A stretch of DNA of 64,000 bases from Candidatus Nanoarchaeia archaeon (GTDB taxonomy: Archaea > Nanobdellota > Nanobdellia > CSSed11-243R1), in contig JAQTNH010000001.1 of assembly GCA_028713895.1 (NCBI GenBank), forward strand, positions 661,376-725,375, given 5' to 3'. This document shows, in pieces, positions 3,878 through 59,077 of this stretch. The notes under the pieces are model-generated. The model was given only the letters and a program-made list of their open reading frames with translations, was not told the origin of the DNA and searched no databases. A program made the position numbers and the translations under genes. The stretch's first letter is position 1. Each line of letters opens with the position of its first letter.

Positions 3878-4087
3878 ATGCCAAAAAAAGGACCAGACAC
3901 ACAAAAAATAAAAAAAATTCTTGAAACTTTAAAGAAAAACCCTAATGGAATTTGGGTACGTGAACTTGCTCGTAAATCAGATTTAGACAAATCAACTGTT
4001 TCGCGTTATATAACAGAGTATCTTAATAAAGAAGTTGAAGAAATTTATGATGTTGGTGGTTTGATAAAGTTGGTGAAGCTAAAATGA
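3878..4087 (+). CDS. small winged-helix DNA-binding protein
   Basis: 69 aa with an HTH-like segment (WVRELARKSDLDKSTVSRYI). Its stop overlaps the next start (ATGA). Confidence 0.5.
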   Translation: MPKKGPDTQKIKKILETLKKNPNGIWVRELARKSDLDKSTVSRYITEYLNKEVEEIYDVGGLIKLVKLK

Positions 4088-5241
4088 TTAAAAACGTATT
4101 AGACTCAGAATTTGCATATTTGTGTGGTGTTTTTGCTGGGGATGGTTGTTTATACAAGGATAAAACATATAGAATCGAGATATGTGATGGAACCAGCGTA
4201 CCTGATGATACAGAATATTCAAAGGAATTTATCGAACATCTCGCATCAGATATTAAATCTAACTTTGACATTAAAAATATTCCTATCCGAAGAAGAGGAA
4301 ATCAATTTATTTTGAATACACGAAATAAGATATTGATAAATGCTTTAATGTTTATTGGATTTAAACCCGGGAACAAGTCTCATATTGTTTCGGTCCCAAA
4401 ACTGTTTCTTGGAAAAGAAGTATTAGAACTAAATTTTTGGCGTGGTGTGATGGATACGGATGGCATGGTGGCAAGGAACTCAAGAAAAATAGCATTAGAA
4501 TCTGCTAGCAAAAAACTAATAGTTCAGTATTCCGACTTTTTAAAAAAACATAAAATCCCCCATGTGGCATATAGCAGACGATTGATTGATGGTATCTACT
4601 TTGGAGTTAGACTTAGAAGTCCATTTTTAGAGATGTATGCTAAACTGATAGGATTCAAACATCCAAGAAAGAAAAATTGGTTAGAACAACATATTAAACA
4701 CAGATTTTATATTGAGAATGAACTACGAATAAATGATTTTCTTCTAGACAGAGGAGTGATTGATTATGAAACTATTTTTAATGATAGTAACACCTTCGTA
4801 GTTAATGGGAAGGAATTGCTTAACAGATTAGGCTCAAATTATTATCAGTATAGACCAAATATTTTACTGAGTACGATTCTATCCGAAGCTAAAAAGTTAG
4901 GTTTTGATAAACTCAAAATTTTAAAGTTGCTGTCTAAATATCGATGGAAATCTTCGAAAGGTTCAAATATATCAGTTAAGTTGCCGTTAAAATACAATAA
5001 AAATATGGATAAATTATTACAATTAGTTAGATTAGGTACGAGTGGAAACATAAAAATATCGCGTAGATATGCTAACGCTTATGAAGTTAATCCTGACCTT
5101 GCGATTAGAGAAATAACTGAGCTATTTGATTTAAAACCAAAATACACTTCAAAACAAGAAACTTTATTTTGTAGCACAGTTTTAAATATCCTATTCTCTA
5201 GAATATTAAGGAGAACAACATGTCAGAATATGAAAAAGTAG
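4084..5241 (+). CDS. free-standing double-motif LAGLIDADG endonuclease-like protein
   Basis: Two LAGLIDADG-type motifs, YLCGVFAGDGCL (about residues 12-23) and FWRGVMDTDGMV (about residues 118-129). The codon usage is AT-rich and TTA-rich. The 3' end overlaps the gatE start by 22 nt. Confidence 0.7.
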   Translation: MIKNVLDSEFAYLCGVFAGDGCLYKDKTYRIEICDGTSVPDDTEYSKEFIEHLASDIKSNFDIKNIPIRRRGNQFILNTRNKILINALMFIGFKPGNKSHIVSVPKLFLGKEVLELNFWRGVMDTDGMVARNSRKIALESASKKLIVQYSDFLKKHKIPHVAYSRRLIDGIYFGVRLRSPFLEMYAKLIGFKHPRKKNWLEQHIKHRFYIENELRINDFLLDRGVIDYETIFNDSNTFVVNGKELLNRLGSNYYQYRPNILLSTILSEAKKLGFDKLKILKLLSKYRWKSSKGSNISVKLPLKYNKNMDKLLQLVRLGTSGNIKISRRYANAYEVNPDLAIREITELFDLKPKYTSKQETLFCSTVLNILFSRILRRTTCQNMKK

Positions 5242-7085
5242 GTTTGAAGGTTGGACTGGAAGTCCATCAACAGTTAGATAGTCATAAACTATTTTGTAAC
5301 TGCCCCTCTGTGATGCGGGACAAAGAACCAGATTTTACTGTAATCAGAAAACAGAAAGCAGTAGCTGGAGAGATGGGGCTCAAGGATATTGCCGCAGAAG
5401 CAGAAGAATTCAAGGACAAAACTTTCGTGTATGAAGGTTATAATGACACCACATGTTTAGTAGAACTTGACGAGGAGCCTGTTCATCCTATAAACAAAGA
5501 AGCACTGGAAATCGCGTTGATAATTGCAAAATCGCTTAACATGAGAATATTTGACGAGATAGAAGTGATGCGAAAGACTGTAATCAATGGCTCGAACACG
5601 TCAGGATTCCAGAGAACTGCCTTAGTCGGCGAGAATGGTTTTATTGAAACAAGCAGAGGAAAAGTACGCGTCAACATGCTTGCAATTGAAGAAGATGCTG
5701 CACGAGAAATGCGAAGGGAAGAAGGTGTTGTTAATTTCAGGCTGGACAGATTGGGAATTCCGCTTGTTGAACTGCGGACTGAGCCTGACATCACTTCGCC
5801 AGAGCAGGCAAAAGAAACTGCAGAGAAACTCGGGCTTTTAATGAGGATGACTGGACGCGTTAAGCGAGGGATAGGAACAATCCGCCAGGATGTCAATGTC
5901 TCAATCAAGGGCGGAAGCAGGATTGAGATAAAAGGATTCCAGGAACTCAATGACATACCTGCTGTGATTAAAGGAGAGATTGACAGACAGAAAAACGTTC
6001 TTGAGATACGAAACAAGCTCAACTCGCGCAAGGCAAAGGCTGTGCGGGATTTCAAAGAAGTCTCGCGAATACTTTCAGAATCAGAATCAAAACTTGTCAA
6101 GGAAGCGCTGGAGCGCGGAGAAAAAATAATCGGGATGAAGCTCAAGGGATTTGACGGAATGTTCAAGCGCGTAATCTGCGGGGAAAGAACCTATGCAAAA
6201 GAATTTGTTGATTATCTCAAACATTTCACAGACATGAAAGGATTCATGCACACTGACGAGCTGCCAAAATACGGAATAATTGACAAGCAGGTGTTTGAGC
6301 TGAAGCAGCTGTTCACAGCAGGAAATGAGGACTTGGTATTGTTCCTGTTCGGCTCGGAAAAAGAATGCCACAGAGCGCTGCATGTTCTTGCAGACAGGGC
6401 AGAGCAACTAATTGCAGGAGTCCCAAGCGAAGTTAGGAATTCAATGGAAGACATGTCAACAAAGTTCCTGCGCCCGATGCCTGGGGCATCGCGCATGTAT
6501 CCGGAGACAGACGAGCTTCCAGTAAAAATCACAAAGGAAATGCTCAAACAAATCAAGCTGCCTGACACTCCTGACCAGAAAATGAAAAAATATGTGAAGC
6601 TCGGGCTCGGTGAAGAGCTCTCAAAGCAGATGATTCACAGCGAATACTTCCCAGTATTTGAGGAACTTACAGACAGGTTCAGGAAACTCAATCCAATACT
6701 TATCGCGTCCAATCTTCTTTCTGCGCGGGATGAAATCAGGAAACGCTTTGATGCGAATACAGACAGCCTGAACAAGAAACATTTTATCGGAACATTTGAG
6801 CTGCTTGAGAACGGAAACATTGCAAAGGAAGCTGTGATTGAGCTTCTTGCATGGCTTGCAGTCAACCCGCAGGCCGGAGCAGAAGAAGCAATGCGTAAGC
6901 TGAAGCTGCAGAGAATCAGCAAGAAAGAGCTTGAGAAATTCACAGACAAGATTCTTGAGGAAAACAAAGAACTGGTTGAAAAGAAGCAGTTCGGCGTGCT
7001 GATGGGCTTCCTCATGCGCAAAGTCCGCGGAAGAATAGACGGAGAGCTTGTTTCTGAAGTTTTGAAAAAGAAAATGGGATTATAA
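5220..7085 (+). CDS. gatE: Glu-tRNA(Gln) amidotransferase subunit E
   Basis: 621 aa with a GatB/GatE core (GLEVHQQL, NGSNTSGFQRT) and a C-terminal GatB/YqeY-like tail. Confidence 0.9.
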   Translation: MSEYEKVGLKVGLEVHQQLDSHKLFCNCPSVMRDKEPDFTVIRKQKAVAGEMGLKDIAAEAEEFKDKTFVYEGYNDTTCLVELDEEPVHPINKEALEIALIIAKSLNMRIFDEIEVMRKTVINGSNTSGFQRTALVGENGFIETSRGKVRVNMLAIEEDAAREMRREEGVVNFRLDRLGIPLVELRTEPDITSPEQAKETAEKLGLLMRMTGRVKRGIGTIRQDVNVSIKGGSRIEIKGFQELNDIPAVIKGEIDRQKNVLEIRNKLNSRKAKAVRDFKEVSRILSESESKLVKEALERGEKIIGMKLKGFDGMFKRVICGERTYAKEFVDYLKHFTDMKGFMHTDELPKYGIIDKQVFELKQLFTAGNEDLVLFLFGSEKECHRALHVLADRAEQLIAGVPSEVRNSMEDMSTKFLRPMPGASRMYPETDELPVKITKEMLKQIKLPDTPDQKMKKYVKLGLGEELSKQMIHSEYFPVFEELTDRFRKLNPILIASNLLSARDEIRKRFDANTDSLNKKHFIGTFELLENGNIAKEAVIELLAWLAVNPQAGAEEAMRKLKLQRISKKELEKFTDKILEENKELVEKKQFGVLMGFLMRKVRGRIDGELVSEVLKKKMGL

Positions 7086-21132: not shown

Positions 21133-21169
21133 TACTGGACATACTGGACAACACCCTAAATTTGATAAA
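21133..21169 (+). promoter_or_regulatory. promoter module copy A: ACTGGACATACTGGACAACACCCTAAATTTGATAAAG
   Basis: Tandem TACTGGACA units abut a TATA-like box, 24 nt before the ATG of the PIN gene. Confidence 0.7.
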
Positions 21170-21193
21170 GCCCGACCACATTATTCTGCATTT

Positions 21194-21601
21194 ATGGTGA
21201 AGCAAGTTCTAGTTGACACGAATGTTTTTATCCATTACAGCGAAGGACAAAAGTATGCATTGACATTCTTTAGCAAAGCAAGATACAGCTCAGAAGTCCA
21301 GATTCATGTCCTGAAAGATGTTTATGCTGAGGCAAGAGTAATGTCCCTTGATTTCCAGAAAATTTACAACCTGATAACTGAACTGCAAAAATGCCAGATT
21401 TACCACAAAGTCGAGCTGGAGGACAGCGAACGCGAATATGCAGAGGAACTAACCCAGAAATGTTTTGAAGAGTTGGGGCACGCTATAGACAGGACAGATA
21501 GACGGATAATTGCTGTTGCCAAGATGAGGAAACTCGAGATATTTTCAAAAGACAAAGATTTGATTAGGATTGCCAGGCTTGAAGGAATCAAAACACTTTA
21601 A
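21194..21601 (+). CDS. PIN-domain nuclease (VapC-like)
   Basis: 135 aa with the N-terminal VLVDTNVFI acidic motif and later conserved Asp/Glu positions. Confidence 0.7.
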   Translation: MVKQVLVDTNVFIHYSEGQKYALTFFSKARYSSEVQIHVLKDVYAEARVMSLDFQKIYNLITELQKCQIYHKVELEDSEREYAEELTQKCFEELGHAIDRTDRRIIAVAKMRKLEIFSKDKDLIRIARLEGIKTL

Positions 21602-21870
21602 GGCATATTTTTTGCATTCTCAAAAATCCATTTTTCATACTCAGCATCGCTCAAACTGCTTGTAATCTTACGCAGCTTTCGCACTGCAGCAACTGCATTC
21701 CTTTCTTTTTTGTAATCTGTCCTGATTTGTGCAATTTTGTACTTGAGCAGAGCATCCCGTATCGCAGCCCTGAAAAAATCAGCCTCATTCAGGAAAGCCC
21801 CCTTTATGCAGCCGCGAACTTCAGTTGCCATGTTCTTTGGCAGCCGCGTGCTTATAATAACCTGTTCCAT
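21598..21870 (-). CDS. ribbon-helix-helix (CopG/Arc-like) DNA-binding protein
   Basis: The beta-strand IISTRLPK followed by helices (ADFFRAAIRDAL) is typical of RHH proteins. I prefer the start at 21870 over 21888 because of the TATA position. Confidence 0.55.
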   Translation of the reverse strand: MEQVIISTRLPKNMATEVRGCIKGAFLNEADFFRAAIRDALLKYKIAQIRTDYKKERNAVAAVRKLRKITSSLSDAEYEKWIFENAKNMP

Positions 21871-21888
21871 GTTTACAATTGTAAACAT
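21869..21888. promoter_or_regulatory. 20-bp perfect palindrome ATGTTTACAATTGTAAACAT at the RHH gene start
   Basis: Read directly. It lies between the TATA-like tatttataaa (21893-21902, minus-strand sense) and the ATG at 21870. Confidence 0.55.
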
Positions 21889-21914
21889 TGTTATTTATAA
21901 ACTTTATTGCGAAT

Positions 21915-21951
21915 ACTGGACATACTGGACAGCACCCTAAATTTGATAAAG
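21915..21951 (+). promoter_or_regulatory. promoter module copy B: ACTGGACATACTGGACAGCACCCTAAATTTGATAAAG
   Basis: 36 of 37 nt are identical to copy A. It sits 21 nt before the alkA ATG, in the divergent spacer shared with the RHH gene. Confidence 0.7.
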
Positions 21952-21972: not shown

Positions 21973-22575
21973 ATGAAACGTGCTCTTAATCATTTTAAAA
22001 AAGTGGACAAGAAACTGTTTGATGCTGCTAAAAGTATAGCTCTAGAACCTCTTAAGCCACGTAAGCCCAGAGATTACTTCAAAAGCATATGCAGGGAAAT
22101 CATAGGGCAGCAGCTTGCAGGCAAAGTGGCGCGCGTGATTTTTGAAAGGTTTACAGAGCTTTTTCCAGGAAAAAAGATTACAGCGCAAAGAATCCTTGAA
22201 TTCCCTGAGCAGAAGCTGCGAGATGTGGGAATGGCATGGTCAAAAGTCAGGGCAATAAAAGACCTAGCCCAGAAAACAGAAGACAAGACTTTACAATTCA
22301 GAAAAATGGAATCCATGACTAATGGGCAGGTTGTTGAGATGCTGACAAAAGTAAAAGGCATCGGGCCGTGGACTGCAGACATGTTTTTGATGTTCACTCT
22401 CGGCAGAGAGGATGTTTTTTCAGATAAGGACTTGGGGCTCAGGAAAGCAATAATAAAACTTTATGGGTTGGACGAAAAGGTTACAGACAAAGAACTAAAT
22501 GAAATCAGCATGAAATGGTCGCCTTATCGCACTTATGCATGTTTGACATTATGGAAACTAAAGGATGGTGATTGA
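21973..22575 (+). CDS. alkA: HhH-GPD DNA glycosylase (3-methyladenine DNA glycosylase II-like)
   Basis: Helix-hairpin-helix motif VKGIGPWTADMFLMF followed by an Asp-containing loop (FSDKDLGLRKA). Confidence 0.75.
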   Translation: MKRALNHFKKVDKKLFDAAKSIALEPLKPRKPRDYFKSICREIIGQQLAGKVARVIFERFTELFPGKKITAQRILEFPEQKLRDVGMAWSKVRAIKDLAQKTEDKTLQFRKMESMTNGQVVEMLTKVKGIGPWTADMFLMFTLGREDVFSDKDLGLRKAIIKLYGLDEKVTDKELNEISMKWSPYRTYACLTLWKLKDGD

Positions 22576-22939
22576 TGTGTGGATGGGAATGATAATTGAA
22601 GAAAGCCTTGAGGACAAAGCAGTCCTAAAACAAGTAAAAATAGTAAAGACAAAAGAATCCTTTGACGATATAACACAGATGGACTGGCATTTGCACAGTG
22701 TTGAAGTTGAAGACAAGAACATAGACGCTGTTGTCAAGCTTGGAAGCAAATGCATAAAGGAAGGATGGTGGATGGATTTCAGGAAAGGAGATGAAGCCTT
22801 TATTATACTCAAGAACAAAATTTTTAGGATTACTCAAGGCGAGTTAACCAATTCAAAGAAAGCGGAAAAATATGCCATATCTCATGGTGTTGACCCGCGA
22901 CAGGCGGACTTTACAAAATATTTTAGTGGGGAACTATGA
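22565..22939 (+). CDS. hypothetical protein
   Basis: 124 aa. It overlaps alkA by 11 nt and nre by 4 nt, so it is translationally coupled within the operon. Confidence 0.4.
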   Translation: MVIDVWMGMIIEESLEDKAVLKQVKIVKTKESFDDITQMDWHLHSVEVEDKNIDAVVKLGSKCIKEGWWMDFRKGDEAFIILKNKIFRITQGELTNSKKAEKYAISHGVDPRQADFTKYFSGEL

Positions 22940-24144
22940 AGTCTCCAAACATGTGCCTGATGTGCAAAGGTGGAAGGGCGCTGTGCGGAAACCAGAGATG
23001 CCCGCTGCTTAGCAGGGTAGAAGCGCTTCCAAAGATTGCAAGCCAGATGAAAACAAAGGAATTCTTCGGGCCAAGCACATCAATATTTGTCGGGCATGTG
23101 GGATATCCGAGCGTGAATGTCGGGCCAGTCGGGGCGCTGGGATTCAAGGAAAAGATTGATGCGCCAGAGCAATGGTTCGGCATGGAGTACAATGACGTGA
23201 TTGAAATGCGCTCGCTCACTCTTCGCTCAAAAATGTCACAGCATGTCAAGTCAAAATCAAGAATCGTGGAAGACAGCCAGCTCCTTGCAATGGCTGAGAC
23301 TCCAACTGATGTTGAGATGAACTTCAAGAAAGAGCCTAGCTACAAATTCTCGTTCTCTGATATTGTGCAGCCAATGGGGCCGAGCGCGCCGCTTGACAGG
23401 CTGAAAATAATTGACAATGTCCACATCTCCAGAAAAGTGGATTACATTGTGCATGATGACTTGAAATCAGCTGAGCAATGCTATTCAATGTACCAAGTTG
23501 GTGTGGACATCCATAAGGTCATGAACATACTCAGCTCAGGAGCGCTTGGCGTTGAAGAGAACCAGAAAATGGTTCCGACAAAATGGTCAATTACAGCATT
23601 TGACGATATGGTCACTAAAAATTTGTTAGAAGACTTAAGAACCTCATCTGAAATTAAAGAAATTCAGACATTTGAAAGCGAGTATCTTGGGAATCACTTC
23701 ATTATTTTGTTGATTCCTGGTAAATGGGAATTTGAGAATTTCGAGGCTTGGTCTCCAGGTTCAACATGGGCAATGGATGCAAAAGAAACACAAGTAGTTG
23801 GAGAATACGAACCTTTTGAAGGAAGAACGACTTATGCGCAAGGACAGAGCGGTGGTTATTACGCAAGTAGATTTTCAATAGTCGAGTATTTACATAATAT
23901 TAAACGACAAGCTAGAGTTGTTGCATTTAGAGAAATTTCAGAAAAATACGTTGTACCCTTAGGAGTTTGGTTGGTTCGTAGCACTGTTAAACATGCGTTT
24001 GACAGCCATCCAACTAAATTTAATTCTTTGAAAGAGGCATTAAATTTTATTAGTTCTAAACTTAAGTTACCTATGCACAATTATCTGAGAGACAGTAAAA
24101 TTTTACGTCAAACTAGATTACTTGACTTTAACAATTTAGTTTAG
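22936..24144 (+). CDS. nreA: archaeal Nre-family DNA repair protein
   Basis: 402 aa with an N-terminal Cys cluster (CLMCKGGRALCGNQRCP) and later GGYYA and VPLGVW motifs, as I recall them for the Nre family (DUF650/DUF651). This needs a profile search. Confidence 0.55.
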   Translation: MKSPNMCLMCKGGRALCGNQRCPLLSRVEALPKIASQMKTKEFFGPSTSIFVGHVGYPSVNVGPVGALGFKEKIDAPEQWFGMEYNDVIEMRSLTLRSKMSQHVKSKSRIVEDSQLLAMAETPTDVEMNFKKEPSYKFSFSDIVQPMGPSAPLDRLKIIDNVHISRKVDYIVHDDLKSAEQCYSMYQVGVDIHKVMNILSSGALGVEENQKMVPTKWSITAFDDMVTKNLLEDLRTSSEIKEIQTFESEYLGNHFIILLIPGKWEFENFEAWSPGSTWAMDAKETQVVGEYEPFEGRTTYAQGQSGGYYASRFSIVEYLHNIKRQARVVAFREISEKYVVPLGVWLVRSTVKHAFDSHPTKFNSLKEALNFISSKLKLPMHNYLRDSKILRQTRLLDFNNLV

Positions 24145-25413
24145 ATTTGGTCTATACGGTAATTTCCAATCGCTTATGTTCGGATTGAATGTGTATACTT
24201 GGCGTATTATGCTCCCAAACGATTTCTTTTTTCCGAACTTTCCTTTTGTAACTATTATTATATTTGCTTGCTCAAAAATTTTAAGATAATGCGCAATTGA
24301 ATGCGCCCACTTTCCGCCATAGCTTTTAAGATTTTTTGATGTTATGATGCGATTAACTAGTTCATATCTACAACACTCTTTAAGTTCCTTTATTGCATTG
24401 AATACATCTTCAATACAAATTTTGTTACCTGAACCATTTTTAAAAATATTATTTAGTATACATATTGCATCTTTTTCATTGTTTATGCAAGTTTGGAAAC
24501 CATAGACATAGTCATAAAGTTTATACCACTTTTCAGTTTTGGGCTCAAAAAAGTTTAACCAGATTTTTGCTTCGTCTTTTGATAATTTATTGCTCCAGAA
24601 TCTCCAATAGCTCCCGCTTGGCTTGTTCATTAGCGTTATCTTTAGTCCACATAAGTTTAAAATTTCAAAAAGGTCATCTCTAAACTGTTTGCTTACGACA
24701 CATAACTCAACCTGATTTTTTATTCCTACACCTGCCTCAAAACTTAACGCCCCTATTGCGAATGCGTTTCTAAATCTTGATTTTTTAATTATTTCTGGTT
24801 CTCTAACAGTATACACTTTTTCTCCATTAGGAAAATTAAATATTTGAGTTATGTATCTTGTTATTACTTTGTTATGAAATGATATTGCCCATTCATTTTC
24901 ACTTATTTGTTTTATTGAGCCCACTCTTGTTTCAAATATGTTTTCTATCCAAGATTTAAATGCGATTAAATTTGATTTATATCCATCTGAAATACGGAAA
25001 AAATTATCATGTACAGTTCCATCTGCAGCATGGGCTCCCATAACTTTACATAGTTCTGTGTTCAATCCTTTAACTGCCTTAACTGGTTTTGCTACAGAAT
25101 TGTTAATCTTTAAGAATTCAATATTTTCTTGAAACTTGTTTTTGGAGCCATTTGTTAACTTTATCAGGTATTCTATGAAAATCAAAGGAAACCATTCTTT
25201 TTTAAGATAAGCCATTCGTTGAGCATTTGAATTAGACACATGAAGCTCTTTTTCTATTAGTCTAAACAGTTTATATTGTGAGATCCCCTTTTCCTTAAGC
25301 GACTTAATCATAATGTTTAGTTCTGTTTTAACATTTTTACCTTTGCAAACTATCCAACCTCTTGCTTTGATATCCCTTGAGTAATCCTGTAATTTGAACA
25401 AGTCAATTTCCAT
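24136..25413 (-). CDS. LAGLIDADG-like protein with N- and C-terminal HTH-like extensions
   Basis: Motifs LCKVMGAHAADGTV and FAIGALSFEAGVGI lie about 100 aa apart, and the second is degenerate. The gene is AT-rich and overlaps the nre stop by 9 nt, convergently. Confidence 0.6.
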   Translation of the reverse strand: MEIDLFKLQDYSRDIKARGWIVCKGKNVKTELNIMIKSLKEKGISQYKLFRLIEKELHVSNSNAQRMAYLKKEWFPLIFIEYLIKLTNGSKNKFQENIEFLKINNSVAKPVKAVKGLNTELCKVMGAHAADGTVHDNFFRISDGYKSNLIAFKSWIENIFETRVGSIKQISENEWAISFHNKVITRYITQIFNFPNGEKVYTVREPEIIKKSRFRNAFAIGALSFEAGVGIKNQVELCVVSKQFRDDLFEILNLCGLKITLMNKPSGSYWRFWSNKLSKDEAKIWLNFFEPKTEKWYKLYDYVYGFQTCINNEKDAICILNNIFKNGSGNKICIEDVFNAIKELKECCRYELVNRIITSKNLKSYGGKWAHSIAHYLKIFEQANIIIVTKGKFGKKKSFGSIIRQVYTFNPNISDWKLPYRPNLN

Positions 25414-25523
25414 TTTAAATCACCGAGCCGACTTGGGCGAAGATTGTTTATGAAGTTTTAGCGAAGCGACACGAAGTGGAAAACTCAATAAACAAGCTGA
25501 GCCAGGCTCACAGGTGATTTAAA
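25414..25523 (-). repeat. 110-nt imperfect inverted repeat (long hairpin or MITE-like element) abutting the start codon
   Basis: 11-bp terminal stem TTTAAATCACC/GGTGATTTAAA, then a 3-nt bulge, then further stems of 5, 8 and 6 bp. It is flanked by TTTAAA at both ends. Confidence 0.6.
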
Positions 25524-25549
25524 AGGAATAATACTATATGGGTTTGTCG

Positions 25550-27446: not shown

Positions 27447-27572
27447 GCTCCTGTAGCTCAGTCAGAAGAGCGCGTGCTTGGTAAAGCCTTTCTTTTGCGA
27501 AAGAAAACCTTGGGAAAGAAAACCCAAAATCCGAAGAGCACGAGGTCGTGGGTGCAATTCCCACCGGGGGCT
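27447..27572 (+). tRNA. tRNA-Thr(GGU) with a canonical-position intron and atypical D and T loops
   Basis: Acceptor GCTCCTG/CGGGGGC (two G-U pairs), anticodon stem CGTGC/GCACG and loop TTGGTA-A. The intron is 27484-27536 (53 nt). The D loop AGTCAGAA lacks GG and the T loop is TGCAATT. Confidence 0.75.
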
Positions 27573-32774: not shown

Positions 32775-33584
32775 CTAGAACCCGTAACCAATTTCTCTAA
32801 AAATTCGTTTCATGGCAAGCGAGTCCCTGTCCAGCAATGGAGATTCGCAGATAATTGCGCTGTCTATCTTTTCTTTTAGAATCTTTTCAGCCAAGGGTTT
32901 GAAGGGGGGCTTATTGACTGAAATGGGCTCATGATTGCGTTCATTTCCAAGTCCATCCTCCCTGACGCTGAAATTTATCCCAGAGAAATGAAAATGGTGC
33001 TCTTTCAGCTTCAGAGTGTTAAGTTTTTTGAAAATTGAATCATAATCAATATGCCCTGCATTGCGCGCATAATCGTGCGCGAAGTCAACAACAGGAACGC
33101 AGCCTTTTACCGCCTTGCACACAGCAACTATCTCGTCTATGTTCCCGAACTGCCCCTGCTTTCCTGTAAGTTCAAGCCCGAGCGGAACAGAAACATTTTT
33201 TGACGCCTCCTCGCACACAGAAATCATCTGCTCCATTGCAGCACCCTTTTGCATCTTCATATAAGCGCCCGGATGGAAAACAACAACCTTTGCGCCAAGC
33301 AGGTCTGCGCGCTTTGCTGATTCATAAATATTTGAAAGCGAGCGGTTCAGCTTTGCCTTGTCCTGCTGGAGAAGGTTTATGTAATACGGCGCATGTATGC
33401 TCAAGCGGATGCCGCCCTGTTTTGCCAGCTCGCCAATTCTCCTTGCGGTTTCAATGCCCATCTTTACGCCGTAAGTGAACTGAAGCTCCATTGCATTGAG
33501 CCCAAGCCCGGCAAGGTCTGTAATTGCGCTTAATGAACTTTTAGAATCAATAGGGGTTCCTGCAGGGCCCAGCCATAATTTCAT
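32775..33584 (-). CDS. nfo: endonuclease IV-like AP endonuclease (xylose-isomerase TIM barrel)
   Basis: Metal-ligand contexts HAPYYINL, FHPG, LE, DFAH and HFHFS follow the Nfo order. Confidence 0.7.
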   Translation of the reverse strand: MKLWLGPAGTPIDSKSSLSAITDLAGLGLNAMELQFTYGVKMGIETARRIGELAKQGGIRLSIHAPYYINLLQQDKAKLNRSLSNIYESAKRADLLGAKVVVFHPGAYMKMQKGAAMEQMISVCEEASKNVSVPLGLELTGKQGQFGNIDEIVAVCKAVKGCVPVVDFAHDYARNAGHIDYDSIFKKLNTLKLKEHHFHFSGINFSVREDGLGNERNHEPISVNKPPFKPLAEKILKEKIDSAIICESPLLDRDSLAMKRIFREIGYGF

Positions 33585-44140: not shown

Positions 44141-45565
44141 ATGAAGATAATCTATGCAACTGACATCCACGGGGACTACAACGCCCTTAGATTCGTTGCT
44201 GCTCATGCCAAAAAAACAAAACCTGACTTAATGATTGTTTCAGGCGACATTTTGGACACAGCATTTCCTGAGCCTGACGAACATAAAAAATATTATGATT
44301 CTTTTGTAACATTGCACAAACACAGAACTGATAACAAAATCCAAAAAGGACTTGAAGAGATAGCGAATGAGATAATTGCTGATAAGAGTTCTGATAAAAA
44401 GTTAAAATCAGCTGCATCTGATTACGCTGATTCAATTGAACCTGCAAAAAAGGGAATGCTGTCCCAGTACATGATTGTAAAAAAGATTCTTTCAGAAACA
44501 GGAGTTCCGCATGCAGTTTTGCCTGGCAATTATGATGGATTCGGACTTGAAGAGCTTTTCAAGGAAGACAACCTGCATAAAAAGTCAAAAAAAATAAAGA
44601 ATGTCAAAATATCAGGATACGGAAGCTCAAACTATATAGCTTCATTTGCAATTCCCGAACATCTTATTACTGATTACTATGAATTTGATGAAGACGGCAA
44701 AGTTAAGTCCGAACCTTATTCATTTTTTTCAAAAGAAAAACCTCAGATTGCAGTTATACACAATCCTCCACGTGGAGTACTTGATTCTATTACAAAAGGC
44801 GAAAACAAAACAGAGAAAGACAACACTGGAGAACATGTTGGAGACCCAGAACTTGCAAAATACATTCTTGAAAAAAAGCCAAAAATTGTTTTGAGCGGAC
44901 ATATACACGGAGACTATGGCATAATGAGCTCCAAGGATACATACTTTCTTAACCCAGGAAGGCTTGGCAGAGGAAAAGGCGCAACTGGATGCTTCTACGA
45001 AATCGAAGTTGACGATGAGACTGGCGAACTAAAGAATATAGTTGTTAACCAGATAGCTGATTACGACAGAGGGATTATTGTAGAACTTAGAGATTTTAAT
45101 CATGAAAACAAAAAGAAACCTGTTAAAGCTGAAGCAGCAAAACCTGCTGAAACCGAGGCTAGGACAGAAGCGCCTACAGCATCAAAAGTTCCATATTCCC
45201 TTATCGGGCAGCTTGGAGACATAAGCTACTACACCAAGCAAAGCAAGGGCCTTGCAGAAAAATACCAAAAAAGCAAAGAGCCTGGCTGGTCGTTAGGCGG
45301 ATACTTTGACATGGACGAGCTTACCTGCGAGAACATGTACCCCAAGAAAACAAGGGAAATGTTTGCAGAGAATGCTGTCACACATAATAATTACAAAATA
45401 ATCAAAGAGCTGGATAACCTTGACAAGACATTGTATGGAAAGCAGAAAGAGCACCCTGAGCTTGGAGCGTATCACAGCAAAATAATCTCAGCAATGAGAA
45501 ACCCGTCACAGGCACCAGCATTGATTGCCGAACTCAAGACAGCATTTGTAGAGGCATACGCCTAA
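44141..45565 (+). CDS. metallophosphoesterase with a C-terminal extension
   Basis: Motifs ATDIHGD, SGDILD, PGNYDG, HNPP and GHIHG appear in order. Confidence 0.7.
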   Translation: MKIIYATDIHGDYNALRFVAAHAKKTKPDLMIVSGDILDTAFPEPDEHKKYYDSFVTLHKHRTDNKIQKGLEEIANEIIADKSSDKKLKSAASDYADSIEPAKKGMLSQYMIVKKILSETGVPHAVLPGNYDGFGLEELFKEDNLHKKSKKIKNVKISGYGSSNYIASFAIPEHLITDYYEFDEDGKVKSEPYSFFSKEKPQIAVIHNPPRGVLDSITKGENKTEKDNTGEHVGDPELAKYILEKKPKIVLSGHIHGDYGIMSSKDTYFLNPGRLGRGKGATGCFYEIEVDDETGELKNIVVNQIADYDRGIIVELRDFNHENKKKPVKAEAAKPAETEARTEAPTASKVPYSLIGQLGDISYYTKQSKGLAEKYQKSKEPGWSLGGYFDMDELTCENMYPKKTREMFAENAVTHNNYKIIKELDNLDKTLYGKQKEHPELGAYHSKIISAMRNPSQAPALIAELKTAFVEAYA

Positions 45566-57850: not shown

Positions 57851-57870
57851 AAAGGGCGGAATACTGGACA
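57851..57870 (+). promoter_or_regulatory. distal repeat AAAGGGCGGAATACTGGACA upstream of radA
   Basis: 19 of 20 nt are identical to 57919-57938. It contains one TACTGGACA unit. Confidence 0.55.
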
Positions 57871-57930
57871 CATCTTTCTTTTGTGAAAAGAAAGCTGTAC
57901 CAAAGAAAAATTGCAAGAAAAGGGCCGAAT

Positions 57931-57960
57931 ACTGGACATACTGGACAACACCCTAAAATT
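57931..57960 (+). promoter_or_regulatory. promoter module copy C upstream of radA
   Basis: ACTGGACATACTGGACAACACCCTAAA is identical to copy A over 27 nt and is followed by an A/T-rich TATA-like box. Confidence 0.7.
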
Positions 57961-58003
57961 CATATAGTCTTTTTGAGTTATGCTCTGTAAAGGTGTTATG
58001 ATT

Positions 58004-59077
58004 ATGGCAAAAAAACAAGTTGAAACTGAGGAAAATTCTGAAGAAGAGTCTTTTGAAGAGGAATCTGAAAAAGAAACTGAAGAAGAAGAAACTGCAGAGG
58101 CAAAACCCGCTGCAACAAATGGCGTGGACGAGGTATTTGATATTGAGCATATTCCTGGCGTGGGCGCAACAACAGCACGCAAGATGCGCGAGGCAGGATA
58201 CAAGGATGCAATGGGGATTGCAACCGCGTCTCCTGTTGGACTGGCTGAAGTGTGCGAAATAGGCGAGGCAACTGCCAGAAAAATAATCGAAGTGGCGCGC
58301 TCGCATCTTAAAATGAATTTCATCACAGGCACAGAAATGCTTGAGAAGATGAAAAAAGTCAAGCTCATAAAGACGGGCTCGAAAGCCCTGGACGGGCTGA
58401 TTGGCGGAGGTGTGGAAACCCAGTCAATCACAGAAGCATACGGCGCATTCGGCTCGGGAAAATCACAGCTTGCATTCCAGCTTGCAGTGAATGTCCAGCT
58501 TCCTGAAGAGCAGGGAGGGCTGAACGGAGATGTTGTCTGGATTGATACAGAAGGGACATTCCGTCCGAACCGAATCATCCAGCTTGCAAAAGTAAAAGGG
58601 CTTGACCCTGAAAGAGTTCTTGCAAAACTTCATGTTGCGCGCGCATTCTCAGCTGACCACCAGATTTTGCTGGCAGAAAAAGTGCCTGAACTTTTCCAGC
58701 AGCATCCTGAAATTAAGCTGATAATTGTGGACTCAATCTCCTCAATTTTCAGGAGCGAATTCGTCGGAAGGGGGACTCTTGCAGACAGGCAGCAAAAGCT
58801 GAACAAACACATCCATGATTTGCAGAGGCTGGCAGACAGATACAATGCGGCTGTCTATATTACTAACCAGGTTATGGCAAAGCCAGACATGTTTTTCGGA
58901 GACCCGACACAGGCTGTCGGAGGGCATGTGCTCGCACATGCATCAACCTACCGCGTGTACCTCAGGCACTCAAAAGGCGACAAGAGAGTTGCAAAACTTG
59001 TTGACTCGCCATGCCTGCCAGAGGGAGAGTGCGCATTCAAGATTGATGAGAACGGGATAAGCGATATTGAAGGCTGA
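58004..59077 (+). CDS. radA: DNA repair and recombination protein RadA
   Basis: HhH ([12 protein letters not shown]), Walker A (GAFGSGKSQ) and Walker B (LIIVDS). I prefer the ATG at 58004 (GGTG SD 8 nt upstream). The N-terminal tail of about 45 aa is acidic. Confidence 0.95.

Follow-up and report, generated by a model that had tools for sequence, protein, structure and literature searches.

A recurrent direct-repeat element in promoter position points to a recombination/repair and nuclease regulon in DPANN archaea

The window investigated is a stretch of 64,000 nucleotides from Candidatus Nanoarchaeia archaeon (GenBank assembly GCA_028713895.1, contig JAQTNH010000001.1, positions 661,376 to 725,375 of the forward strand), in which a short module of tandem 9-bp direct repeats followed by the hexamer RCACCC recurs upstream of nuclease, repair and recombination genes. 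The sequence TACTGGACATACTGGACA-RCACCC was found three times exactly (copies A, B and C), and a degenerate copy with three repeat units (copy D) was present on the minus strand. All four copies are intergenic and each is oriented toward the gene downstream of it: a PIN-domain nuclease gene (copy A), an operon of alkA-like, orf124 and nre genes (copy B), radA (copy C) and a LAGLIDADG-like gene (copy D).

Copy A (TACTGGACATACTGGACAACACCCTAAATTTGATAAAG, 21133–21170, plus strand) begins with two tandem units, TACTGGACA-TACTGGACA (21133–21150); ACACCC (21151–21156) follows, and then a TAAA resembling the transcription factor B recognition element (BRE) and a weak TATA-like box, TTTGATAAA (the whole of this second half spanning 21151–21169, with BRE and TATA box assigned from geometry). 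Copy B (21914–21951, plus strand), with two tandem units at 21914–21931 and GCACCC, TAAA and a TATA-like box at 21932–21950, was identical to copy A at 37 of 38 nt, the single difference being an A to G change after the repeats. The 27 nt that follow the leading T of copy A recur exactly at 57931–57957 in copy C (plus strand), whose two tandem units (57930–57947) precede ACACCC, TAAAA and the TATA-like box TTCATATAG (57948–57967). Copy D reads from 25582 to 25550 on the minus strand as TACTGGACA-TAGTGGACA-AACTGGACA-GCACCC, and its TATA-like box, CATATAG (25534–25540, minus strand), is common to copy C and to relatives. Beyond the module, copies A, B and C are no longer alike. The start codons lie at 21194 for copy A, 21973 for copy B and 57998 or 58004 for copy C, whereas copy D lies 137 nt before the start codon at 25413. 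An earlier description made from the letters of this DNA (the sequence-only reading) had reported the same four strings and their distances to the start codons; all were found as described, the coordinates of copy A being merely one base off relative to those of copy B.

The identity among the copies had also been claimed to be far beyond chance, and the counts bear this out. A 17-mer allowed up to three mismatches gave five matches in the window against 0.08 expected, and five matches were reached in none of 100 shuffles. The 15-mer core TACTGGACANCACCC, again with up to three mismatches, gave eight matches against 2.1 expected; the four real sites matched it with zero or one mismatch and everything else with no fewer than three.

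Genes were called by profile searches (Pfam and NCBIfam) of the window products, with several small open reading frames (ORFs) outside the Pfam scan. The gene led by copy A (21194–21601, plus strand) encodes a PIN-domain nuclease (28 bits), and its ATG lies at +52, as counted from the start of the proximal unit (the one next to RCACCC). Copy B leads an operon (21973–24144, plus strand; first ATG at +50) of an HhH-GPD (AlkA-like) glycosylase gene (21973–22575), orf124 (22565–22939) and nre (22936–24144; Nre_N E 4e-86, Nre_C E 7e-34). The radA gene (57998–59077, plus strand) encodes a protein of the Rad51/RadA family (E 1e-88), and its likely start is the ATG at 58004, which is preceded by AGGTG. 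The PIN, nre and radA annotations thus hold in profile searches. The alkA annotation holds as regards the HhH-GPD domain (E 4e-14), but the best NCBIfam match, 3-methyladenine glycosylase 2, fell under that model's cut-off. The 425-aa gene led by copy D (24136–25413, minus strand) had been called LAGLIDADG-like; two such motifs can be recognized by eye, and paralogues in relatives with the same leader do match LAGLIDADG_1/_3, but the gene itself had no significant Pfam or NCBIfam match.

A further copy was found on a second contig of the source genome (JAQTPB010000009.1, locus L075; loci outside the window are given as L-numbers), where the module TAGTCGACA-TACTGGACA-GCACCC precedes xpd with the ATG at +50; the XPD product scored above the TIGR00604 (rad3) cut-off. 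In the assembly consulted, GCA_028713185.1, the window was placed on contig JAQTPB010000001.1. The source genome therefore has five unlinked units (PIN, alkA-like/nre, LAGLIDADG, radA and xpd) with the same motif in the same promoter position. In the closest relatives the module leads radA, xpd, an N-terminal fragment of Hel308, a Cas4-like PD-(D/E)XK nuclease gene, three or four PIN genes and seven or so LAGLIDADG genes; in L061 one module is located 5' of a PIN gene and another 5' of a region followed by a gene pair of winged helix–turn–helix (wHTH)/ParE-like type. The module-driven Hel308-like ORF (L055, 933–1229) ends after 98 residues on a short contig; a frameshift could account for this, as could an intein or insertion or a faulty assembly. 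The other approximately 90 genes of the window lack the module, and those that could be annotated are housekeeping genes, encoding GatD/E, an aspartyl/lysyl-type tRNA synthetase, SRP54/FtsY, purine enzymes, diphthamide or hypusine enzymes, ribosomal proteins, 5S rRNA and tRNAs. Around radA or xpd in relatives, there was one site per approximately 20 kb. The claim that the downstream genes are functionally coherent is thus borne out, and xpd extends it. A rough estimate, which assumes about 12 genes of this type among about 115 in the 86 kb of source DNA, put the chance that all five module-led units start with a repair or nuclease gene at approximately 5e-6.

The anatomy of the module was compared across 30 sites from at least seven genomes, comprising the window and related DPANN contigs named 'Nanoarchaeota'. 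The consensus was (A)T-TAsTnGACA-TACTGGACA-RCACC(C/T)-TAAA-N3-4-ATAWAG. The units, with the consensus TAsTnGACA, are direct repeats of 9-bp period without dyad symmetry, and their number ranges from one (radA of L033, L057, L071 and L072) to three (copy D and L046). The proximal unit is nearly always TACTGGACA and, together with RCACCC and TAAA, is almost invariant, whereas the distal unit is more variable (TAGTGGACA, TACTTGACA, TAGTCGACA and TACTGGAAA). The sequence-only reading had described a module of 37 nt; what is conserved is a core of one or more units, RCACCC and TAAA, and the identical TATA segment of copies A and B is a local, within-genome likeness. Occasional extra distal units are found 70–80 nt upstream.

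In archaeal promoters an A/T-rich TATA box is centred about 26 nt before the start of transcription, with the A-rich BRE directly upstream. At the modules the TATA-like box is centred at approximately +25 from the proximal unit, and 18 of the 30 sites have an ORF-opening ATG at +48 to +52; the distance from TATA box to ATG is that of the ordinary, mostly leaderless genes of the window. This register fits leaderless promoters with predicted start sites, and supports the view that the repeats are part of the promoter, the TATA-like box and start codon standing in fixed register. The exceptions to the register are genes with Shine–Dalgarno leaders, namely radA (about 15 nt with AGGTG in the source and in its closest relatives, RadA 97 % identical), the Cas4-like gene and the LAGLIDADG genes (about 100–110 nt). 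The TATA boxes at modules are weak (CATATAG, GATAAAG or TATAAAAAG); genes of the window without the module have better boxes (TTTATATA, TTTAAATA and TTTATAAA), and neither TTTATATA nor TTTAAATA was found at a module promoter. Given the ATG and TATA register, the module can be read as an upstream element (about −50 to −33) to which a BRE-like TAAA and a weak TATA box are directly joined; its proximal unit would occupy about −50 to −42 relative to the predicted start.

A distal single unit, TACTGGACA, absent from the sequence-only reading, lies 5' of radA, 68 nt upstream of copy C (57862–57870, plus strand), and a T-rich palindromic hairpin, CTTTCTTTT-GTG-AAAAGAAAG (57874–57894), separates it from the proximal units. 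The same perfect palindrome, as CTTTCTTTT-GNG-AAAAGAAAG, is present upstream of modules in L037, L043, L054 and L055, again with a distal unit, often incomplete, on one side and the proximal units on the other; short direct repeats of GGCAnnnTTAC border it in L037 and L054. One possible role is that of a bidirectional oligo-T terminator or insulator; alternatively, the palindrome may be a very small insert for which the unit is the target.

Relatives of the window RadA and of XPD were named Nanoarchaeota, Nanoarchaeia, Woesearchaeota or Parvarchaeota, all DPANN. A scan of metagenomes with TACTGGACANCACCCTAAA gave 24 loci, of which approximately 17 came from close relatives (JGI samples Ga0315273, Ga0315287, Ga0315278 and Ga0315297), the remainder being apparently chance matches in unrelated DNA. 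Among species-representative genomes, a collection that does not include the source genome, the exact 18-mer gave only chance or coding matches and one repeat family in a Clostridia metagenome-assembled genome (MAG), binchicken_co113_160. In this MAG TACTGGACA forms tandem arrays of two to four copies at seven loci (L002, L008, L011, L012, L015, L023 and L024); the family was set aside as unrelated to the module, with which it shares only this word. No match to the module was found in a scan of viral contigs.

Upstream of radA, the module was present in genomes whose RadA is 97 % (L032/L045 and L043), 80 % (L033 and L057; L067), 78 % (L072/L073) and 73 % (L068–L070) identical to that of the window, and at 70 % identity (L071) it was degenerate and still recognizable as TACTTGACA-CCCCC-TAAA. 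The genomes behind L033 and L071 are assemblies GCA_027007025.1 and GCA_053997895.1, respectively. A Parvarchaeota-named contig with RadA 63 % identical (L078) had an ordinary TTTTTAAATA promoter at radA and no module. The only alignable, conserved block 5' of radA in the relatives is the proximal unit with RCACCC and TAAA, and the genes upstream vary from genome to genome (Zip, PHP, rubrerythrin, HD and ABC transporter genes). At xpd the module was present in the source genome (L075), in the closest relative (L054, RadA 97 % identical) and in the genome of L067 (L074). In this last genome the XPD shares 61 % identity with that of L054, which served as query, and the module, TAGTAGACA-AACTGGACA-GCACCT, is followed by an ATG at +51. 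Because radA and xpd both keep the element in register, a functional regulatory site is indicated, and conservation of a regulon rather than of a single promoter; this conservation across diverged genomes is the strongest evidence for both.

We consider it likely that the element is a promoter module which defines a coherent and conserved regulon of repair and nuclease genes. The repeats would form the upstream half of a specialized archaeal promoter, in which the units together with RCACCC would be the site of a sequence-specific transcription factor and tandem units would permit cooperative binding. Such a factor, placed beside the BRE, could recruit TFB and TBP to a poor TATA box as an activator or could block them as a repressor. 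A factor touching the TFB/TBP platform is suggested by the BRE-adjacent position, the rigid register, the weak TATA box and the tandem and distal units, all of which fit it. Activation is slightly favoured over repression, because of the weak core promoter and a position like that of an upstream activating sequence, and the mRNAs would be mostly leaderless. The regulon so defined within one DPANN clade would include radA, xpd, hel308, the alkA-like/orf124/nre operon, the Cas4-like nuclease gene, several PIN genes and numerous free-standing LAGLIDADG endonuclease genes. That it might be induced by DNA damage is a conjecture from its gene content.

The LAGLIDADG genes have an additional feature. 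The gene led by copy D is preceded by a structured leader of approximately 110 nt (25414–25524, minus strand), in which the 5' arm UUUUAAAUCACC (25513–25524) pairs with GGUGAUUUAAAA (25414–25425), holding the Shine–Dalgarno sequence just before the AUG. Leaders of the same type, with outer stems of 12–13 bp, were found in L037 (2421–2527), L038 (1772–1886), L042 (3942–4048) and L052 (3347–3461). The leader folded into a long hairpin of minimum free energy −35.5 or −36.8 kcal/mol (z-scores −4.4 and −5.0); there were two sequence variants of it with a few compensatory changes between them, and no Rfam family matched the LAGLIDADG leader at gathering thresholds. The start site predicted from the module (+49/50) falls just past the 5' arm, and in RNA folded from this start the Shine–Dalgarno region was unpaired in the centroid structure. 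The hairpin might therefore hide the ribosome-binding site in read-through transcripts and leave it open in module-started ones, in which case only the latter would be translatable; such a translation lock is suggested by the geometry.

At the same position in two strains, L037 and L038 carry LAGLIDADG genes that are driven by modules but differ greatly from each other (248 and 244 aa); both run into the same tRNA-Cys gene on the opposite strand (L037, 1658–1730; L038, 1021–1093), so that their products have an identical C-terminal ...RDPGVEPGCFALQANT. In L040 (approximately 1330–1400), a module begins right after an apparent tRNA 3' end. These arrangements suggest that homing endonuclease genes turn over at sites next to tRNA genes.

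Several points weigh against a regulon of this kind. None of the candidate factors examined could be tied to the motif, and the start sites of the module promoters are predictions. Some repair-type genes lack the module, namely those for endonuclease IV (32775–33584) and a metallophosphoesterase (44141–45565) in the window and, in L075, those for a DNA ligase and for an ATPase of HerA-like type. Most of the sites come from close relatives, so that the 30 sites are not independent observations. Moreover, copies within a genome are more alike, TATA segment included, than orthologous copies between genomes, and several LAGLIDADG promoters share approximately 150 nt of module and leader. For these two reasons part of the spread is best ascribed to duplication or gene conversion of promoter cassettes and not to sites having been selected independently. 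Such homogenization is seen in copies A and B: the matching PIN gene of the closest relative (RadA 97 % identical), taken as the orthologue from its identical PIN/RHH-like gene arrangement (RHH, ribbon–helix–helix), has a TATA segment typical of that relative and unlike that of A and B, and the A/B identity is therefore local. On this footing the module could be a mobile promoter cassette of selfish multicopy LAGLIDADG and PIN genes, which together account for more than half of the sites, and could have reached radA, xpd and alkA by recombination, without any regulon or factor; the two different LAGLIDADG genes at one tRNA-Cys-adjacent site, and the hairpin insertion with short flanking duplications upstream of several modules, would agree with this. 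Cassette copying cannot, however, account for how deeply the element is conserved at radA and xpd, where the register is kept down to 70 % RadA and 61 % XPD identity in unrelated flanks with no LAGLIDADG or PIN gene nearby. The sequence-only reading had named the end of a multicopy mobile element as an outcome that would overturn it, and no terminal inverted repeats, target duplication or element body, such as a miniature inverted-repeat element or insertion sequence would have, were found; the A/B/C similarity ends with the module and viral contigs gave no match. A purely mobile origin is accordingly judged unlikely. The selfish genes could also be connected with the module as its cleavers, if it were the recognition site of LAGLIDADG endonucleases; its length (about 24–38 bp) is within the range of LAGLIDADG targets, these genes are its commonest neighbours, and constancy of sequence would follow. 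We regard this as very improbable, given that the register with TATA box and start codon is fixed at genes with no LAGLIDADG gene nearby, that the number of units varies from one to three, and that the motif is constant while the LAGLIDADG paralogues are very divergent.

If a promoter function is granted, what reads the module may still differ from the dedicated regulator proposed above. RCACCC-TAAA and the unit could form an extended core promoter recognized by a variant of the general machinery (a paralogue of TFB or TBP), and the module would then define a promoter class comparable to those of alternative TFBs in haloarchaea and of TFB paralogues in Sulfolobales. The rigid spacing of motif, TATA box and start codon, the invariant RCACCC directly against the BRE position and the sufficiency of the proximal unit alone at radA in several lineages speak for such a class, but BRE contacts normally span only about 6–7 bp, tandem units and distal units 70–80 nt upstream are typical of regulator sites, and no TFB or TBP paralogue was seen in the DNA examined; we think this explanation rather unlikely. 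The sequence-only reading had instead proposed a RHH protein (21601–21870, minus strand) or a wHTH protein (3878–4087) as cooperative binder of the 9-bp repeats and controller of the regulon. MetJ and omega are examples of RHH proteins that bind short direct repeats in tandem, and the 90-aa RHH-like gene, which converges on the PIN gene, has a divergent module at its other end, with different genes beyond, in three genomes (the window, L037 and L061); no module was found at the loci of 55 %-identical homologues. It lies tail-to-tail with the PIN gene with a few bases of overlap in the window and in L037, a second RHH/PIN pair in L061 is arranged alike, and in L063–L066, where there is no module, the same layout joins it to an unannotated PIN-sized gene. 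Its homologues form only six clusters among 5.8 billion proteins, and of the homologues listed none comes from the sources of L033, L067, L071 and L072, which are radA/xpd contigs with a module. A palindrome, ATGTTTACAATTGTAAACAT (21869–21888), lies between the TATA box of the gene (TTTATAAATA, approximately 21893–21902, minus strand) and its ATG; its form GTTTAC-N4-GTAAAC, (A)TGTTTACAnnnGTAAACAT, is conserved at the homologues in L061 (10001–10020) and L063 (approximately 1602–1620), for which reason it is probably the protein's own operator. The RHH label itself, which was based on a sequence pattern, one weak RHH_1 match among homologues and the JGI naming of two homologues, was not confirmed: the protein had no Pfam or PDB sequence match and no significant profile or structural match, and its AlphaFold model was of low confidence (mean pLDDT 69) and gave no Foldseek match in PDB at E ≤ 0.001. 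The RHH-like and PIN genes look like a toxin–antitoxin pair, albeit in a tail-to-tail layout unusual for such pairs, and the RHH-like protein is probably a partner of PIN rather than the reader of the module. The wHTH annotation held, with a match to HTH_24, as did that of the second LAGLIDADG gene beside it (4084–5241; LAGLIDADG_3), but the wHTH gene sits in an unrelated gatD–gatE insertion without a module, and control by either protein seems improbable.

The insertion just mentioned (3878–5241) comprises the HTH_24 and LAGLIDADG_3 genes, placed between gatD (1655–2926) and gatE (5220–7085), and the LAGLIDADG_3 ORF overlaps the gatE start. Other candidates for a regulator were discarded or could not be linked to the motif. 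The 128-aa gene after radA appears by eye to encode a secreted lipoprotein (an N-terminal hydrophobic stretch followed by Cys). HTH_3 proteins with an HVO_2718_N domain, encoded a few kb from radA in relatives, were not linked to the motif; they resemble a type that we take to be the widespread aMBF1. The 200-aa gene divergent from xpd, likewise not linked to the motif, appears to encode an antitoxin-like partner, with a C-terminal HTH, of a PIN-like gene (234 aa, weak DUF3368 match; L075, 8585–9897, and L074, 8598–9895, minus strand), and the promoter of this pair stands back-to-back with the xpd module, as that of the RHH-like gene does with copy B. Approximately 1.3 kb downstream of xpd, two genomes keep a gene whose product joins a DUF87/HerA-like P-loop ATPase to a C-terminal winged helix of TrmB/MarR type (L075, 13183–14745; L074, 13067–14605); no link to the motif was found, and the layout, which recalls Orc1-2, makes it a candidate regulator only in the sense of a lead. 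Elsewhere in the window, a 126-nt tRNA gene (27447–27572) was found by Rfam and missed by ARAGORN, and presumably contains an intron.

The reading of the module as the operator of a conserved regulon can be carried further, in that one operator might control the radA, xpd, hel308, glycosylase, nre and Cas4-like genes, with the LAGLIDADG and PIN genes plugged into it and the leader hairpin acting as a second lock; we offer this fuller scheme tentatively, as a possibility less probable than not. If it is correct, production of the LAGLIDADG and PIN proteins would be confined to times when the host produces its recombination machinery. The sharing of this promoter class by homing endonuclease and PIN genes suggests a way in which selfish nucleases might synchronize with host recombination. 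A promoter class defined by sequence and linking radA, xpd, hel308, a glycosylase and nre would also give a handle for finding the regulator and would aid the reading of metatranscriptomes of uncultivated DPANN archaea.

To our knowledge, archaea have no LexA. The claim that no described operator looks like the module agrees with the literature searched, in which nothing matching was found for the motif or for archaeal and DPANN repair regulons, nor any comparable regulon for DPANN archaea. The sole archaeal damage regulon in the literature covered is that of Sulfolobales, in which Orc1-2 binds the damage-responsive element (DDRE) 5'-ANTTTC-3' and the targets are tfb3, ups and ced rather than classical repair genes (PMC6061795); a co-regulated set of canonical repair genes, if confirmed here, would be of a kind not known from archaea. 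Like the DDRE, the module is a short, promoter-proximal archaeal element, at about −23 to −55 of the ATG, common to a set of genes, and in Sulfolobales too a dedicated regulator acts next to BRE and TATA without LexA (PMC6061795). The two elements are unrelated in sequence, ANTTTC not being conserved in the consensus of the 30 sites, and the module precedes radA, xpd, hel308, alkA-like and nre genes instead of tfb3, ups and ced (PMC6061795).

A resemblance to the origin recognition box (ORB) was also considered. The Pyrococcus ORB bound by Orc1/Cdc6, CCCCCC-AGAGTTTCA-TTTCCACTGGAA, and the module have in common the hexamer ACTGGA and a nearby run of C (PMC1904270); variant units TACTGGAAA occur in L046 and L048. 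The module lacks the TTCC...GGAA dyad, its C-run is on the opposite side and at a different distance, and it lies in promoters and not in an AT-rich origin; the Pfam scan of the window products, which did not extend to several small ORFs, gave no match to Orc1. The identification with an ORB was rejected, only the hexamer ACTGGA matching published ORB sequences, and since the arrangement differs the resemblance is probably due to chance.

Comparable systems are also known from bacteria. Like the LexA/SOS boxes and the radiation/desiccation response motif (RDRM) of Deinococcus with DdrO, the module is a shared element before a recombinase and excision and helicase genes, and selfish elements are wired in, these being prophages and toxins in the bacterial systems. 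LexA and RDRM operators are palindromic, lie across bacterial sigma-70 promoters and are occupied by repressors that undergo cleavage after damage, whereas the module consists of direct 9-bp repeats upstream of BRE and TATA; its units form neither a palindrome of the CTGT-N8-ACAG type nor a 17-bp RDRM, and no LexA, DdrO or IrrE homologue was seen. In architecture the nearest likeness is the mycobacterial RecA-NDp motif activated by PafBC, which reportedly is joined to the core promoter element at constant spacing, takes the place of a good upstream core element and marks many repair genes as an activator-dependent promoter class; it differs in belonging to a bacterial sigma-factor promoter and in its unrelated sequence and regulator family. 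Archaeal upstream activating sites, such as those of Ptr2 and TFB-RF1, are located immediately upstream of BRE and TATA at weak core elements, but they are palindromic or single and serve one or two promoters, in contrast to the tandem repeats of the module at many genes and across genomes. The geometry of the LAGLIDADG leader matches the control of I-TevI type in phage T4, in which the ribosome-binding site of the endonuclease gene is reportedly sequestered in a hairpin of read-through transcripts and would be accessible in those that a dedicated promoter starts within the hairpin; here the host is archaeal, the LAGLIDADG genes are free-standing and the start is predicted. The module is thus not a member of the DDRE/Orc1-2, LexA, RDRM/DdrO or PafBC systems, although it would work like the operator of a stress regulon, and the comparison points to a previously undescribed, lineage-specific promoter operator that would define a recombination/repair-plus-nuclease regulon in DPANN archaea.

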